This document shows positions 21,442-31,316 of a stretch of DNA of 64,000 bases, piece by piece. The notes under the pieces were generated by a model, which had not been told where the DNA came from, searched no databases, and saw only the letters and a program-made list of their open reading frames with translations. The position numbers were made by a program, and so were the translations under genes. Source of the stretch: Candidatus Latescibacterota bacterium. Its GTDB lineage: Bacteria > Latescibacterota > UBA2968. The stretch spans positions 4,544,001 through 4,608,000 of the forward strand of contig OZ240241.1 in the NCBI GenBank assembly GCA_965198115.1. Reading direction: 5' to 3'. How positions within the stretch are numbered: the first letter of the stretch is position 1; each line of letters begins with the position of its first letter.

Positions 21442-22607
21442 TGTGACGTCCCAGGAATAACTAGAAAAACATTCGATTCTGTCGTATGGTTCCTCAAGCA
21501 CTCATTCTTGGGAGGAACCGATGGCTAGAGGTCGTCCGTTACAGCCACTGAACATCAGTGATGAGGTCCACGATCAACTCGAGTCATTGTCTCGTTCGCG
21601 TAGCATGTCTCACGCTTTGGTGCGTCGCGCGAAGATCGTCTTGATGAGCGATTGCGGTCTGACCAATCAGGAGATCGCGGAACGAGTCGGGTTGTCCGGA
21701 GCGTCTGTCGGCAAGTGGCGTCGTCGCTTCTGCGAGCAAGGCTTGATGGGACTGTATGACGAATTGCGTCCTGGAGGGCCACGGTCGGTCAGCGACGAAG
21801 AGATCTCCTCCCTCATCTACAAGACGCTCAAGAAGCAACCGAAGGGTGCCACCCACTGGGACCTGTCGTTCGATGGCCGACGAGACGGGGCTCTCCAAGT
21901 CCTCGGTTCAACGTGTATGGAAAGCTTTTGGACTGCAACCGCATCGACAGAAGCACTTCAAACTGTCGAACGATCCCTTCTTCGTCGAGAAAGTCAGGGA
22001 TATCGTCGGTCTATACCTGAACCCACCGGACAACGCGATGGTGCTCTGTGTAGACGAGAAGAGCCAGATTCAAGCACTCGAACGGACACAACCGATTCTT
22101 CCTTTGGGTCTCGGATACGTCGAGGGCGTCACTCACAGCTATATCCGGAACGGCACGACCACCCTCTTTGCAGCGCTCAACATCGCATCCGGCAAAGTTC
22201 TGACTCAGTGCAAGCCCAGACACCGCAACAAAGAGTTCCTTCAGTTCCTCAAGCACATCGACAAGAACGTCCCAAAGGATCTCGACATCCATCTGGTCGT
22301 CGATAATTACGGCACGCACAAGCACCCGAACGTCAAGCGTTGGCTCGCCTCACGGAAACGATATCACGTGCACTACACACCAACATATGCCTCCTGGCTG
22401 AACCAGGTAGAGATCTGGTTCGGTATCATCACCCAAAGAGCCATTCGACGAGGCACCTTCAGAAGCGTCAAGGACCTGATCGCCTGCATCAAGAAATTCA
22501 CTGATCACTACAACGAGAATTCTACACCCTTCGTCTGGACCGCCACGGCAGATTCAATCCTCGAGAAAGTCCATAAACTTTTGAAGCTTATACGCGGGAC
22601 GTGACAC
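21441..22607 (+). mobile_element. IS630-family insertion sequence
   Basis: IRs GTGTGACGTCCC / GGGACGTGACAC, each flanked by TA within CTAG. Confidence 0.92.
21521..22604 (+). pseudogene. IS630 transposase, split by an extra G near 21860
   Basis: HTH N-terminus in ORF 21521; VLCVDEKSQIQAL, VVDNYGTHK, WLNQVEIWF in ORF 21756. Confidence 0.9.
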
Positions 22608-24802: not shown

Positions 24803-26523
24803 CTAAGCTCGTCTCGCCAGGGTCAGACCTTCCTGTTCCTGCCACAGTCTGAGAATGCGTCGCGATTGCTTGAGGTAGTATCGATACGTTCCTGCGAGCG
24901 CCTTTTTGGGCCGTTGGGCGTCTTGCCGCTCGGGAGCGCATTGTGCTTTCCACGGGCCTGGTTAATCCGGCGCGACCCGTTCTGCACGGACACGGTCATC
25001 ACTCGATAGGGTCTCGCATCGCCGGTCGTGACCTGCATCGACCAGACGGAGATCTTACCCTTTCGACAGTTGTTCGAGTAGGATCCGACACAGTGGCTCA
25101 TAGCCTTTCCTTCGGCCATCAGCTCTTTGGTGCTCAATAGCTCACGAATCGCCCATCTGTGAGACTCGCCCCCCGGGGTCTCTCTATCCTCGAGCTCGAA
25201 CGTCCCCAGGCCCGAGGGGCCCCAGGCGCGATCGGGGATACGTGTCTCTCGCGCCAGCTGCCGGTGCCAGATCTCCACCTCCCGCAACAGCTTGTCGATG
25301 CTCCTTCCCTTGACGGAGAAGTTGGGTTGTGGTGCTGGCCCGGTCGTTCGCTCCCCGCCGGGTTCTATGATCTCTTCGGGTTCGAATTTGCGGTGTTGGA
25401 TGTAGTCGACGAGCGGGCCGACCTGGTCGGGATCGAGCATCGGGTTGTTGACGAAGAAGTGAATCACCTTGGACCAGAAGGTCTCGTGTTCGAACGACCC
25501 TCCCAGCTGAGTCGCGTTAATGGCTTCGACCAGCGAGGCGTCGCCACCCAGACCCAGAACCTGTCCCCAGCGAAGCGCCTCCTCGATCGTGTAGCCATCC
25601 GGCGCCTGGAGGAAGAGGTGGGCCATCCGCTTCGTCAGATCGACCGGCGTGCCGGCCTTTCGAATGTTCCCGCCGTTCCCGACGTGGAGAAACCAGTCCT
25701 GGTGATCGCGAACCGCGCTCCCCTGAAGCCAAACCGCGTCCATAAAAGCCGGAACATCATACCGGCAGACCAGATGCCGAACCAGAGATCCGAACTGCCG
25801 ACGAGAGTTGCGAACGTCGGGACGCCAGGAACCGGGTTCCTCCAGCCAGCGGTCCTGACGGCGCGAAAGCTCGCACAACCCCTCGACGAACGTATTGCCC
25901 GGGACGGTACCCAGATTGGAAAGCGCCGGCTTCAGACCGAGCAGATCGCCCACAGATTCCGCCTGCAGCAGCGACCGTCTGAACGCATCACGCGCGCCGG
26001 CATCCGGAAGCGAAGACGCCTCGTCCTGAACAAGACGATAAAGAGGGCGCTCGAGTGCGCGATCGTCGACCGTGCCGTCGAAGATGGCCTGGATGACGTC
26101 AGCCGGTCGCCGCGAATGTCGCTTGGCCGACTTGAGTGCTGAATCTCCTCGAAACCGTTCAGCAAGCGCGATTTCCTTCTTCCGTTGCGCGTCGCTCTTG
26201 TGGAGTGCATCACCCAGCCCGTGTGTGACGCACCAGCTTCTGTAGGCGTCCCGGTCGGGCAAGCCGAGCTTTTCAACGTGGCGATCCAGGGCGGCCTCAT
26301 CCCGCGATCCATCCAGCTGTTGCTGTGCGAGGGAGCGCTCGTGACGCCGCTCCTGCCAGGTCTTGTTCAACGCACCGCTCAAACCGCGATCGTGGCACCA
26401 CGATTTGTAGGCCGACACGCCGTCCAGCCCGAGGGAGGCCAGATGCGCAGTCAGATCCGCATTCGCCCTCGCCGAAGCACCTCGATGTCGGCCTTTCCGC
26501 CGTCTGTTCGTTGACTTCGCCAC
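24803..26523 (-). CDS. PcfJ-domain protein with N-terminal tandem repeat; probable frameshift near 24905
   Basis: YDVPAFMDAVW, LTKRMAHLF, IRELLSTKELMAEGKAMSHCVGSY, QARGKHN; alternative frame gives ...RRILRLWQEQEGL...TAG. Confidence 0.8.
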
Positions 26524-26649
26524 ACGTTCTCCATTCGATTCCAATCGGCCACTCGGTCATCATTATCATGCAGCCTTCCGACCGAGGAGGCAATGCAGGG
26601 AGAGGCACCCGTTTGACACGGTGCCGGATGGAGCCCTCCGATCACACAC

Positions 26650-26682
26650 AAGAAACAGCCGGAGCATCTTTCGACGCCCCGG
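26650..26682 (-). terminator. Probable terminator after the ECF sigma operon
   Basis: Minus strand CCGGGGCGTC-GAAA-GATGCTCCGG then CTGTTTCTT. Confidence 0.6.
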
Positions 26683-26806
26683 ATGTTATGTTCGTGGTTT
26701 CACCGGCTCCCCGGGTGAGGCGCCCCTCCTCCCCCTAGATACGGTGGCTCGGCAAGACGATGTCGGCCCGACCAGGCCGGCCCACCACAGCTTCCAAGGA
26801 AGTGGG

Positions 26807-27388
26807 TCACATCGCCGCCACACCTCGTTCGCCCAATCGATCCTTCAGCTGCTGTCTAGCCCGGAAGAGCCACGTTTTGACCGTGCCGACCGGGACATTC
26901 AGTTCCTCGACGATCTCCAGATACGTGCGATCCTTGAGATACCGCAACTCCGTCACGTTTCGGTAAGGGTCCGGCAGGCCGCGTATCTCATCCTCCACCG
27001 TCGTCCGGCGCTCCTCCTGCAGGGTGAAGGCCTCGGGGTCGGGGACCCCCGATGGCTCCCACAGCTCTCGAAGGAAGGCGTCCTCCTTACCCACGACGTC
27101 AGCCCGCGCCCGTCTGGACTGCTCCGCCCGATGATAGGTGGTACATACATTCATCGCGATCTGCATCAACCAGGTCGAGAAAGCCGATTCACCTCGGAAT
27201 CCCGCCAGGCCGAGATAGGCACGCATGAATGTGGTCTGCAACAGGTCCTCCGCGTCCTCGCGACTGCGTGTACGATACAGGAGAGCCGAATAGATCCTCG
27301 ATTGATGCGCACGGTAGAGTTTGGTGAAAGCGTTCAGGTCACCCTCGAGTGTGCGCTGCACTAGTTCCGTTTCTCCAAGCGTCTCCAT
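26807..27388 (-). CDS. ECF-family RNA polymerase sigma-70 factor
   Basis: GDLNAFTKLY, EDAEDLLQTTF, FRGESAFSTWL, PVGTVKTWLFRAR. Confidence 0.93.
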   Translation of the reverse strand: METLGETELVQRTLEGDLNAFTKLYRAHQSRIYSALLYRTRSREDAEDLLQTTFMRAYLGLAGFRGESAFSTWLMQIAMNVCTTYHRAEQSRRARADVVGKEDAFLRELWEPSGVPDPEAFTLQEERRTTVEDEIRGLPDPYRNVTELRYLKDRTYLEIVEELNVPVGTVKTWLFRARQQLKDRLGERGVAAM

Positions 27389-27460
27389 GACGATCTCTTC
27401 TTTCTTTGACGGTTCATTGCGTGATAGGCGCCCTGGGGGCGCGATCTGAACTCTATGCCC

Positions 27461-27658
27461 CTACTCAGGGGTTTCCGTCGTCGACTCGATCATAGCCAGC
27501 CCGTCCCTCAGGTCGGGGCCATCGGTGAACATCCATTTCACCGCGTGGAACCCGAAAAAGGTCGAGACGAGGACAACGACGACCGTCAAACTGAAGAGAA
27601 AGTTTTTGAGGTTTTCCCTCTCATCTTTCCGGCTCAAGACTTCCTTGAACGTTCGCAT
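27461..27658 (-). CDS. Small single-TM membrane protein (65 aa)
   Basis: GGAGGAG RBS then ATG; hydrophobic FLFSLTVVVVLVSTFFGF. Confidence 0.65.
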   Translation of the reverse strand: MRTFKEVLSRKDERENLKNFLFSLTVVVVLVSTFFGFHAVKWMFTDGPDLRDGLAMIESTTETPE

Positions 27659-27682
27659 ACACTCCTCCAAACAGGTTGGTAC

Positions 27683-27850
27683 CTAAGTTCCAATTCCAGG
27701 GTCGATCTCTGCTCTGTCGAAGCCGTCGAATGTCTCGATGGCGATCTGTTCGCCAATACCTCGGGTTGTTTCGTCCGCGACGTTGGTAGACATTCGCAGG
27801 GCAACGTCGTAGCCCGCTGCGACGGTGTTCAGAGCACTGTGATAAGACAT
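27683..27850 (-). CDS. Small acidic protein (55 aa), not in the ORF track
   Basis: GGAGG RBS then ATG; MSYHSALNTVAAGYDVALRMSTNVADETTRGIGEQIAIETFDGFDRAEIDPGIGT. Confidence 0.55.
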   Translation of the reverse strand: MSYHSALNTVAAGYDVALRMSTNVADETTRGIGEQIAIETFDGFDRAEIDPGIGT

Positions 27851-27866
27851 GATTCCTCCAACCCGG

Positions 27867-28031
27867 TCACGGCTGACCGGGATTGCTGTTGCGATGATGT
27901 GATAGATGACCTAAATTGTTGAGAACGCGCCGGTTGTACCGAACGGCGTCGTTAGCTGACTGGGCCCTCGCGTCGTCCCGCCAAAGACTCGCGTGAGGGC
28001 CTGCTTTTATTTCGGTTCTACGTGGTGTCAC
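27867..28031 (-). CDS. Possible small basic protein (54 aa)
   Basis: GGGAGG RBS then GTG, open frame to TGA; overlaps hairpins, so it may instead be a structured leader. Confidence 0.3.
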   Translation of the reverse strand: MTPRRTEIKAGPHASLWRDDARAQSANDAVRYNRRVLNNLGHLSHHRNSNPGQP

Positions 28032-28199
28032 GTGAGACCTCCCTTCGTTCGGGTTGATTCCGCTCCACCTGGTGCCGATCCGCGGGCGATAGACCTCCGA
28101 TCCTCCTTTCTTTGACCGTCCTACTGTATAGACCCGGAAAAGTGCGGATCATTATAAAAAAAGGCCACAGCGTCGATTTTTTCTCGCGCGGCGGCCATT

Positions 28200-28225
28200 A
28201 AAAAAGCCGTCCTGAAGGGGACGGC
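28200..28225 (-). terminator. Intrinsic terminator
   Basis: Minus strand GCCGTCC-CCTTCA-GGACGGC-TTTTTT. Confidence 0.75.
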
Positions 28226-28517
28226 GGCAAAGGGGTGGGTTGGATACCCGATTTTGCCTGCAAATCCCCGCACGAGAGGAACCGAAGAAGCTTCGGCTTC
28301 GCCCCGGAGAGGACTCGCAGAGTCCAGAAACGCTCTAAAATGAGGGCGTTACTGAACGATGACTCTCCAGGACTCTACCTGGCTTCCGTGTTCAGCGGCT
28401 TACGAGTGCCGCACACGGACATGATTGCATTTACTCGATGCATCGTGCTCGTTCGATTGAAGGGTGAATGATATGGGTCTCGAATTTGTCATTATAATGG
28501 GCTTTCTCCACTGATAG
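28200..28517 (-). ncRNA. Candidate structured non-coding RNA, class unrecognised
   Basis: Upstream promoter, downstream terminator, at least seven hairpins and complementary loops CGAGU/ACUCG; no convincing ORF. Confidence 0.6.
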
Positions 28518-28523
28518 CACCAT

Positions 28524-28552
28524 AAGTTAACCCTGTAGGATTTGTCTGTCAA
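28524..28552 (-). promoter_or_regulatory. Sigma-70-type promoter
   Basis: Minus strand TTGACA-N17-TAACTT in an AT-rich context; a second TATAAT at 28491-28496. Confidence 0.6.
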
Positions 28553-28614
28553 CACGATAATTCAATATTCTGAACTTTTTTTCTGTAAGCGAACGTTGGG
28601 ATCAGCCCACACCC

Positions 28615-29832
28615 CTATTCAGATACGGATGCACCCGGTGCACCGATGGACATTCGGCCCCCCAGCAGCCTTTCGATCGAGGGATCCGCGCCCCAAAAGT
28701 TTCGAAGTGACGTGTAGTGTGCTACGGCCTCGTTCCGCCCACGCTCACCGGTGTTTACTGCCCGAATCAGTAGATTCTTCGATGTCACGTCGTGGGTCGC
28801 AAACTCGACCACGTCGGTCCTGTAGCCGGCCACTTCCAAAGCCGCCGCCCTGAGAGCATCGGTCAGCACATCTGCCGTTCTCTGCTTCAGGATTCCGTGC
28901 TTCAGCAGTGAATGATGTCCGTCTGCCCGGATCTGACCGCTCAACTCCTGCTGGCAGCAGGGGGCGGCGAGCAGCAGTTGCGCATCCCAAAGCACCCCGA
29001 GGGCGAGGGCTTCGTTCGTCGCCGTATCGCACGCGTGCAGACTCAGCACGACATCCGGGTTCACGTCCGGCTCGTAGTCGGCAATCGTGGACTGGACAAA
29101 GTGAACTGCTTTCAGACCGAGTTCGTCGGCGAGCGCGGTCCCTTTCTCGACCCGCTCCGAGTCTCTGTCCACACCCGTGACAACGACTGCCTGCTCTCTG
29201 ACATTCGTGAGATACACAATGACGGCAAAAGTCAGATACGCGCTCCCGCACCCACAGTCTACGATCTGAAGCGCCGCCCCGTCTTTCGCTGCCGGGATCC
29301 TTCGATCGATCAGCCGGAGGAAAGCATTGATCTGGCGATACTTCGCCTGCATCGTCGGCTTCACGCGCCCCGTCTCGTCTGCGATCCCGATGGCCTTGAG
29401 GTAGGGAGCGGCGTCATCAGCTGGAAGCATCGACGATTTGACCCGGTTATGCGCGAGGCGATCCCGCTCCACGCCAACCGATGGACGGCCTCGGGAGACG
29501 AGGGGTCGCCCCCGCTTGCTGATCTTCACGTGAATGTCGCCCGAGACCGACTGCAGGTGAAAGTGCGCGAACCCGGCATCCAGAACCTCCTGCGCCGTCG
29601 CTCGCCACGCTTCATCCTCCGCGTAGTTCTTCCGAATGTCCTGACGCCCGTCGAAGTAGACGAACTGGAGGTGCCGCGTATGCCTGATCTCGACCGGACG
29701 AACGGTGACCTTCTGCCAGGGCACATCTCTCCCACGTCGCTGGCCCGACGCCACAAATTGGATGAAAGTCTCGTCCTGCATCGCATCCAGTAGGGTTGTC
29801 TGATAGGTATGCCCCGTATCGGCGTCTTTCAC
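28615..29832 (-). CDS. Class I SAM-dependent methyltransferase
   Basis: KYRQINAFL, IVDCGCGSAYLTF, SLHACDTAT, APCCQ, TSKNLLIRA. Confidence 0.9.
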   Translation of the reverse strand: MKDADTGHTYQTTLLDAMQDETFIQFVASGQRRGRDVPWQKVTVRPVEIRHTRHLQFVYFDGRQDIRKNYAEDEAWRATAQEVLDAGFAHFHLQSVSGDIHVKISKRGRPLVSRGRPSVGVERDRLAHNRVKSSMLPADDAAPYLKAIGIADETGRVKPTMQAKYRQINAFLRLIDRRIPAAKDGAALQIVDCGCGSAYLTFAVIVYLTNVREQAVVVTGVDRDSERVEKGTALADELGLKAVHFVQSTIADYEPDVNPDVVLSLHACDTATNEALALGVLWDAQLLLAAPCCQQELSGQIRADGHHSLLKHGILKQRTADVLTDALRAAALEVAGYRTDVVEFATHDVTSKNLLIRAVNTGERGRNEAVAHYTSLRNFWGADPSIERLLGGRMSIGAPGASVSE

Positions 29833-29952
29833 GAATCAGGTCTCCTTAGGGGCAGGGCACCACACGCACATTCCGAAAAGGGGTTTTCTCTGACTCTCAA
29901 AAATGCCACATTGTGTAACGTACCTACACCCATAGAGATACGGAGCAGACGA

Positions 29953-30621
29953 GTGCAGGAATCGAAAACCACCCGATCGAGCAGCCTGGTCGAATTCATC
30001 AAGAGCGCGGTCCTCGTCATCGCCGTCTCGTTCTTCGTCCGTTCGACCGTGGTCCAGGCTTACCACGTCACATCCGGATCGATGGAAAACACGATCCTCA
30101 CGGGCGATTTCGTCATCGCCGACAAGCTCACCTACGGAACGCAGGTCCCCGATCGGCTTCCTTTCCTCGAAACGAAAGTGCCCTCGTTCCGTCTTCCCGG
30201 TTTCTCCAGTCCGACTTCGGGCGACCTGGTCATCATCGAATCACCCGAAGACAGCTCCAAGGACCTGTTCAAACGCTGTGTGGCAACCGCCGGACAGACC
30301 GTAGAAATCCGCGACAAACAACTCCTCGTCGACGGGAAGCCCTACCCGAACGCACCAGGCGTCAAATACACAGACTTGAGGACCTTCCCCTCGCGCTACA
30401 TCCCGCGTGACAACTTCGGTCCCGAACGTGTACCTGACGGACACATCTTCGTGATCGGCGACAACCGGGACAACAGCTATGATTCACGCTACTTCGGCCC
30501 CATCCCCATCCACAACATCAAGGCTCGTCCACTCGTCATCGCTTTCTCCCGCAATACCGAGCATCCTCTCTGGAGCCTCGCGAAGGCGATTCGCTGGGAC
30601 CGAATCGGCTCGATCGAGTAA
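29953..30621 (+). CDS. lepB: Signal peptidase I
   Basis: SGSMENT (catalytic Ser), LFKRC (catalytic Lys), GDNRDNSYDSRYFG. Confidence 0.95.
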   Translation: MQESKTTRSSSLVEFIKSAVLVIAVSFFVRSTVVQAYHVTSGSMENTILTGDFVIADKLTYGTQVPDRLPFLETKVPSFRLPGFSSPTSGDLVIIESPEDSSKDLFKRCVATAGQTVEIRDKQLLVDGKPYPNAPGVKYTDLRTFPSRYIPRDNFGPERVPDGHIFVIGDNRDNSYDSRYFGPIPIHNIKARPLVIAFSRNTEHPLWSLAKAIRWDRIGSIE

Positions 30622-30671
30622 CGCACCCCGATGGGGCCTCTGTCCGCTAGCCCGCCGGGCGAGTTGAAAAG

Positions 30672-30727
30672 ACAAAGACGTCCGCCGATCCCCTTCGGTG
30701 AAAGGGATGGGCGGACGTCTGTTTTTG
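30672..30727. terminator. Bidirectional terminator between convergent genes
   Basis: AGACGTCCGCC...GGCGGACGTCT long stem with A-rich left and T-rich right flanks. Confidence 0.75.
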
Positions 30728-30779
30728 CTCCCACTATGATCGGATCACTCCGCGCCGACGTCGGCCGGCCGATCTCAGA

Positions 30780-31316
30780 TCACTGAATGCGGCGCCACGT
30801 GTCCTTGAAGGTGTCGGTGTAGGTCGCCGTCATCACTCCATCGCCAAAGACTTCGGTGTAGCCGTCGTCGCCAGGAAGCGTACCCCCCGCGGCATCCTTC
30901 TTGGCGTGGTGATACGTGATTTTACCGTCTTCGATCGACGCTTTGCCTTTTTCCGTCTTGGCTCGGACGTAGTGGCTCAGCCCTTCGCGATCTCGATAAC
31001 CACGCTGAACGAGTGCGTGGCGTTTGCGCGTGATCGCCGACGTCGAAATCTCATACGTGCTCGCCGCGTAGTCGAAAATCTGCTTGTCCTCGCGGTTCTG
31101 GATCACCGTCACCGAAACGTGGGCCTTGCGGGCGTCGATCGGGTTCCAATGCATCAAGCCCTCGATGGCGGGTGGGCGAATCGTGCGCCCGTCTGCGAGC
31201 TCCCGCGAGTCGAGCGCCCACGTCCCCTTGCAGGCATCCTGCATCTGGCTCAACCGATCGCTGCAACCCGTTGCCATCAGCAAGGCGATAATAAACGTCA
31301 GCGTGGCTCTTCGCAT
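30780..31316 (-). CDS. Hypothetical lipoprotein (lipocalin-like)
   Basis: GGAGGAG RBS; signal peptide with lipobox-like MATGC; GTWAL near the N-terminus. Confidence 0.7.
   Translation of the reverse strand: MRRATLTFIIALLMATGCSDRLSQMQDACKGTWALDSRELADGRTIRPPAIEGLMHWNPIDARKAHVSVTVIQNREDKQIFDYAASTYEISTSAITRKRHALVQRGYRDREGLSHYVRAKTEKGKASIEDGKITYHHAKKDAAGGTLPGDDGYTEVFGDGVMTATYTDTFKDTWRRIQ

Follow-up and report, generated by a model that had tools for sequence, protein, structure and literature searches.

A probable ribosome-dependent transcription attenuator ahead of a small-protein/ECF sigma factor operon in Candidatus Latescibacterota

Attenuators of the trpL type respond to the position of the ribosome on a leader reading frame: a ribosome at the leader stop favours termination, while stalling upstream favours read-through. 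A comparable principle operates in the whiB7/wblC leader of Actinomycetota, where efficient translation of a short upstream open reading frame (uORF) yields a terminator and inefficient translation an antiterminator (10.1101/2023.06.02.543512). For vmlR of Bacillus subtilis, the corresponding paper describes a uORF, an anti-antiterminator, an antiterminator and an intrinsic terminator ahead of an ABC-F ATPase gene, with a uORF peptide whose sequence tolerates change (PMC9226507). Here we analyse a minus-strand leader at 28200..28552 of the window, meaning the whole stretch of 64,000 nucleotides that was studied. Judging from sequence and computed folds, it is probably a ribosome-dependent transcription attenuator of the small-protein/ECF sigma factor operon downstream.

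The ribosome-position logic that we propose is that of the trpL type, yet the leader contains no run of codons for one amino acid and no biosynthetic genes follow it. The same logic is shared with whiB7/wblC, as is a transcription regulator as controlled gene. However, the regulator here is an ECF sigma factor, and the leader adds a further helix layer (helix 1:2 versus helix 2:3, described below) as well as a second terminator-like hairpin. The cassette is, moreover, also found directly before ABC-F, RsgA and efflux genes; homology is not assumed. The leader anatomy and the variable uORF peptide are also reminiscent of vmlR. In that system, however, the stalled ribosome itself breaks the anti-antiterminator, whereas a ribosome at the stop codon of the window leader is predicted to protect it by hiding one strand, strand 1. 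Likewise, the hairpin after the vmlR terminator hides a Shine-Dalgarno (SD) sequence, while the second hairpin here, T2, ends in a U-tract and leaves the SD outside, further downstream.

Upstream, a sigma-70-type promoter-like site with an A-tract ahead of it is located at 28524..28552 on the minus strand. The promoter assignment made in the preliminary description stands as regards the perfect -35 and the 17-nt spacer, but the -10 matches at only 3/6 positions and is under the threshold of the promoter scanner, which called 0 promoters in 26000-31000. A similar sigma-70-like site occupies the equivalent position in 12/12 loci examined. Conservation across genera extends to an 8-nt motif that lies 60-90 nt ahead of the promoter and has a TA-containing stretch 8 nt beyond it (window 28624-28634, minus strand; also L004, L005, L037, L052, L193 and L194); its pattern has 7 matches in the window's own genome, and it is possibly a factor-binding site. 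In genera g4 and g6, the main promoter is itself preceded by an ECF-type promoter-like pair (17-nt spacer; L005 ~1080-1115, L037 ~845-880, L067) that possibly forms an autoregulatory loop; the pattern has 16 matches in the window's own genome, none at the window locus.

The element had been presented as a structured RNA with a four-way junction and kissing loops, without match to known RNA classes. All listed stems were found in place on the minus strand, as were the complementarity of the two loops (28437-28433 with 28407-28403) and the U6 terminator at 28225-28200. The letters of the closing stem are likewise present, but the stem is absent from the minimum free energy fold, which does hold the three hairpins. 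The 321-nt stretch folds at -116.6 kcal/mol, below 100/100 dinucleotide shuffles, with a z of -3.99 that is in part due to the GC-rich terminator. The sole close homologue among 60 relatives, G001, spans the full length at 78% identity; between these two sequences, 1/52 stem columns is substituted versus 7/49 other columns (Fisher p 0.028), and because substitutions avoid the stems, the hairpins may be real within the window's genus. A covariation check of the kind proposed, run on the pair with G001, found 25/26 stem pairs retained, but with 0 compensatory changes and with 3/5 loop-loop pairs lost, and nothing like a four-way junction aligns in other genera. On these alignments, the kissing interaction is not supported and the element is not a new kissing-loop or large structured ncRNA. 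A metagenome scan returned 3 loci, two identical to G001 over the element and one an unrelated terminator, thus no third sequence of the window's genus was found; three contig sets from sequencing runs contributed only presence of the DNA and pieces of relatives. The uORFs, the long-range helix 1:2 and the second terminator-like hairpin (28196-28156) had been missed.

Congruent with the original impression of a lack of known relatives, Rfam 15 gave 0 matches at the gathering threshold across the whole window, and searching 27800-28650 at E<=10 added five sub-threshold matches at chance level (E 1.6-5.4). No tRNA or tmRNA was found. Two complementary-loop hairpins within a closing stem, as in the structure first drawn, are also a feature of the Alu domain of large bacterial SRP RNA (RF01854); however, the locus has no SRP match, the single match of the genome lying elsewhere (186.7 bits), and the loop pair is not conserved. 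For 6S RNA (RF00013), a search of the complete genome (G000) at E<=0.001 gave 0 matches, with a model that failed in 9/14 control genomes too; the 6S of G000 may be too divergent for the model.

Two short reading frames occupy the 5' part of the leader. Frame X (28400..28492, minus strand) has 30 codons with an Arg-Val-Arg stretch at its end, and its start, length and stop are kept in G001. Frame Y (28375..28443, minus strand), also kept in G001, has 22 codons, or 15 from the second ATG at 28422, and stops just 5' of strand 1, 25 nt beyond the stop of frame X. Hairpins 1 (28441-28427) and 2 (28418-28386) of the preliminary description, together 28386..28441 on the minus strand, lie inside these frames. 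Relative to G001, frame X shows 2 synonymous and 11 non-synonymous codon changes, and frame Y 0 and 4. In 12/12 loci examined, a short ORF stops 0-4 nt before the conserved strand 1. It has 10 codons in g4 and 12 in g6, compared with 11 at one f2 locus and 38-40 at the others; the overall range is 5-42 codons, length and sequence varying while the stop position is kept. In the window, the matching ORF and positional orthologue of the uORFs of other genera is frame Y. By eye, the g4 and g6 frames survive synonymous changes, a 6-nt in-frame indel and a stop-codon swap, and those of f2 in-frame 3-nt indels; the g30 uORFs have their last residues in common with L185, and share an identical last codon, stop and next two bases with frame Y. 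With a loose pattern, an SD-like match precedes the uORF in 11/15 loci, frame Y lacking one both in the window and in G001; the anti-SD of the genome is canonical. Separately, strand 3 of g4 and g6 (L005 ~1465-1490, L037, L052, L067) contains a strong SD followed by a 3-codon ORF, absent in the window, and in L063, an f2 copy, the uORF start region and its SD are tandemly duplicated (~1900-2060, minus-strand count).

The lack of an SD match for frame Y can be set beside the purine-rich SD-like run upstream of frame X, and a variant of the same attenuator family is conceivable in which frame X is the working ORF, acting via hairpin 2 and hairpin 0:1 (see below), or in which the switch is partly decayed in this genus. 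The synonymous changes of frame X agree with this, as do the stems of the region, which avoid mutation, and the G001 fold, which shows no switch; furthermore, the Arg-x-Arg end resembles macrolide arrest motifs. An RYR motif is mentioned for vmlR (PMC9226507). However, the stop sits at strand 1 in every other genus, matching frame Y, the spacing between SD-like run and start is not constant, changing by 8 nt from the window to G001, and 11/13 changed codons are non-synonymous. We thus regard this variant as improbable, if the least so of three rival explanations considered here.

For a ribosome terminating on frame Y, the downstream sequence offers competing helices. Strand 1 (28363..28373, minus strand) can form the 11-bp helix 1:2 with 28311-28301, enclosing an inner stem-loop (28325..28354, minus strand) that by eye is similar to a stem in the g4, g6 and f2 leaders. 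Strand 2 (28301..28320, minus strand) is complementary to strand 1 and also to strand 3, the latter yielding helix 2:3 (28320-28310 with 28268-28258, minus strand), a predicted anti-antiterminator based on strand complementarity. Strand 3 (28252..28269, minus strand) can instead pair with the 5' arm of the terminator T1 and the bases before it (helix 3:4, the predicted antiterminator). Folding places hairpin 0:1, the third hairpin of the original structure, at 28367..28382 on the minus strand, as a competitor of helix 1:2. In the OFF state, a ribosome reaching the uORF stop would cover strand 1, permitting helix 2:3 to form and T1 to fold, and transcription would end. In the ON state, a ribosome stalled earlier would leave strand 1 free to engage strand 2, upon which strand 3 would capture the T1 arm and allow read-through. 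Because only the stop position is constant among uORFs that otherwise differ in length and sequence, general translation stress, such as antibiotics or starvation, is the probable signal.

Folding computations on the nascent window RNA, lacking the 3' arm of T1 and with the pairing of the T1 5' arm as readout, agree with this scheme: the antiterminator pairing was 0.82 for the naked RNA and 0.84 when all sequence ahead of the stop was made unavailable, and it dropped to 0.01 once the block extended over strand 1. In the computed untranslated state, the nascent window RNA favours helix 1:2, while G001 favours 0:1, and with strand 1 free helix 1:2 does not form in the G001 fold. When a 30-nt footprint was moved along the leaders and the cost of freeing the T1 arm was tracked, this cost fell once strand 1 was covered in 7/12 loci and the scan was flat in 5/12 (G001, L052, L059, L037 and L060); the window profile is noisy, with low values at three upstream positions too. 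Duplexes were also compared with shuffles in 15 loci, with strand windows and stop codons picked by eye. Here, values of <=0.05 were reached by the cognate 1:2 duplex in 9/15 loci (6/8 outside the training set of the model), by 2:3 in 12/15 and by 3:4 in only 2/15; the values of the window itself are 0.107, 0.047 and 0.150, respectively. In L184, all three strands have changed together. Helix 3:4 thus appears individually weak in the models, with a clear computed mutual exclusion of antiterminator and terminator in the window.

A terminator/antiterminator platform of this type could also serve a ligand- or protein-sensing attenuator (a riboswitch or a target of an RNA-binding antiterminator) with incidental uORFs, and T1, T2 and the strand cores show an unusual degree of sequence conservation, of the kind that binding of a protein might impose. 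The suggestion of a riboswitch-like attenuator nevertheless holds for the attenuator part only: the variable 5' part is a short ORF of which the stop position rather than the sequence is conserved, so that sensing by a translating ribosome is more likely than by a ligand-binding aptamer. In addition, there is no conserved aptamer-like 5' domain, indels and synonymous changes leave the uORF frames intact, and the Rfam searches returned nothing beyond chance. We consider such sensing quite unlikely, slightly more so than the frame X variant.

The predicted ribosome-dependent switch would act on T1 (28200..28225, minus strand), an intrinsic terminator as called computationally and with a covarying stem. 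It is followed by T2 (28156..28196, minus strand), a second terminator-like hairpin with a U7 tract, the 5' arm of which could engage the 3' arm of T1 once the latter is free, at -10.9 kcal/mol in the window. This predicted relay pairing is possible in 18/19 loci at -3.3 to -12.4 kcal/mol (energies without shuffle control), and its covariation is not significant (p 0.10). More speculatively, the freed T1 3' arm would in this manner disarm T2, which would then stop only those polymerases that leaked past a folded T1. After T2, a 24-nt stretch (window 28128-28151, minus strand) is identical in G001, unique in the genome and forms a small hairpin.

Polymerase does not easily pass two strong terminator-like hairpins, and about 110 nt separate T2 from the first RBS in the window. 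G001 has lost element B (a downstream motif, see below) together with the small genes and the ECF gene, yet it retains the leader, followed by a broken PcfJ-like remnant. Along with the stable fold, these observations could be taken to favour a stand-alone ~320-nt structured RNA with a double terminator, the ECF operon being expressed from its own promoter. However, the 5' two-thirds of the leader are unalignable between genera and the loop pair is broken. The scanner detected no sigma-70-like site between T2 and the operon, ECF promoters being outside its scope. Moreover, in seven loci of relatives (L181, L185, L186, L187, L204, L205 and L216) the first gene starts 15-35 nt after T2, a gap too small for a separate promoter, so that these genes would depend on read-through. 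The stand-alone ncRNA, one of two readings offered initially, is therefore the least credible of the explanations weighed here, and very unlikely. The other reading, in which an attenuator governs entry of polymerase into the micro-ORF/ECF operon, finds support, leaving the initial account partly supported overall.

Positional orthologues in two families, reached via short matches to the g4 terminator region and a search with the downstream motif, share this architecture: a sigma-70-like promoter, a leader of 220-440 nt, T1 and then the U-tract hairpin T2. A model of the 3' half only (R1, strand 2 to T2, including neither uORF nor strand 1) matched in 60/132 genomes of the class. Of 18 new stretches, 16 were inspected, two further g27 copies being left out. 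In 11/16 of these new loci (L181-L185, L187, L189, L190, L192, L195 and L197), a short ORF has its stop at or inside a strand with complementarity to strand 2, as seen by eye and with no automatic null; in L186 the short ORF is present and helix 1:2 unsupported. Only the terminators are shared in L188, L193, L194, L196, L203, L212, L213 and L215; three of these, L188, L193 and L194, have a different leader type before GNAT or aldo-keto reductase genes. A second model, R2, in which 13/22 consensus pairs show two-sided change, matched in 60/150 genomes of the phylum, 59 of them in the window's class. Among a second batch of 17 mostly weaker matches, again by eye and with no automatic null, six display the arrangement (L201, L205-L208 and L210), and the remaining 11/17 comprise one cut by a contig end, four unclear cases and six with terminators only. 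Genus g30 keeps T2, not T1. BLAST, R1, R2 and a double-terminator pattern detected no second copy in the window's own genome, where the leader is single-copy, and no such leader was seen by eye upstream of the three best ABC-F matches of this genome. Most likely, these leaders represent a conserved, class-wide attenuator family of the uncultured Latescibacterota that has not been described before. A search of the literature on noncoding RNA of Latescibacterota retrieved none, with the supplements of motif surveys, which could list the leader, outside its scope.

Behind the leader, the window encodes, all on the minus strand, a 55-aa ORF with SD (27683..27850) that is not seen in the relatives' loci, a conserved 65-aa protein with one hydrophobic stretch and no family (27461..27658; in 30/168 genomes) and an ECF sigma factor of 193 aa (26807..27388; PF04542 and PF08281, with TIGR02937 over cut-off). 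The 65-aa and 193-aa pair is found behind the leader in the window, g4, g6 and f2. A protein atlas search with the 65-aa protein gave no match at 0.9 or above, and for the 55-aa ORF a weak match to entericidin B (E 0.022), far below the cut-off, was disregarded. In other relatives, the leader precedes ABC-F ATPase genes (L185 and L187 over the NF000355 cut-off and L181 just under it; L204 and L206 with PF12848), RsgA (L216, PF03193; L186 is a 5' fragment 46% identical by BLAST to L216, the label being unconfirmed by Pfam, NCBIfam and PDB), GNATs (L184), RND efflux genes (L182, L183 and L201) or an MFS transporter gene (L202). The ABC-F gene is preceded by a small HTH-like gene in L185, L204 and L206. 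In family f3, a conserved HTH-like protein of 78-93 aa comes first behind the leader (L185:646-918, L189:3597-3851, L204:164-445, L205:2748-2984), often then followed by an ABC-F gene. The ECF gene is followed, beyond a terminator-like site at 26682-26659, by a 573-aa PcfJ-like gene (window 24823-26544, minus strand); in L033 element B follows a PcfJ-like gene, and L068 is a further locus of this kind. At 21521-22604 on the plus strand, the window holds two overlapping transposase-like ORFs, which we take to be IS630-like with a probable frameshift.

Between leader and operon, element B (27923..28012) consists of two conserved hairpins and represents a separate candidate, not part of the element initially described. 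The motif is present in 27/168 genomes, its near-invariant hairpin pair occurring in 1-3 copies per genome; 44/44 loci with the exact pattern are labelled Ca. Latescibacterota, and viral contigs gave 0. An antisense promoter-like site (27889..27917, plus strand) with -35, -10 and a 17-nt spacer points into it, and by eye is recognisable in most of 15 non-paralogous rows and in 0/5 rows of a type C. These type-C copies (L036, L055 and L064-L066, with a partial extra loop copy in L036 and L064) lie at a second g4/g6 locus with a different promoter, a ~150-nt terminator-ended leader and no obvious gene after it. The plus strand folds over ~90 nt (z -3.03) with a U-rich tail at its end, and is a candidate cis-antisense RNA. 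The loop recalls U-turn antisense targets of the CopA/CopT type, with which element B also shares the size of ~90 nt, two hairpins, an opposite-strand promoter-like site, the U-rich end and the near-invariant loop. However, element B is chromosomal and upstream of a sigma factor operon, its wobble pairs point to both strands (two-sided change in 1/18 pairs), and the type-C copies lack the opposite-strand promoter-like site.

Anti-sigma proteins usually keep ECF sigma factors in check, and control by a ribosome-sensing attenuator would, if true, constitute an unusual input; our literature search, with subscription journals mostly outside its scope, found no case of an ECF sigma factor under leader-peptide attenuation. 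At its most extensive, and as a tentative proposal that we judge rather doubtful as a whole, one Latescibacterota class may use a portable cassette with relay-coupled terminators to wire a translation-stress regulon, in which an ECF sigma factor without recognisable anti-sigma would be turned on directly by ribosome stalling, like WhiB7 in actinomycetes, with a cis-antisense RNA to tune it. Coupling two terminators in the proposed way would offer a simple means of limiting leaky read-through, and in this uncultured phylum the cassette singles out genes that are candidates for roles in translation stress and intrinsic resistance.
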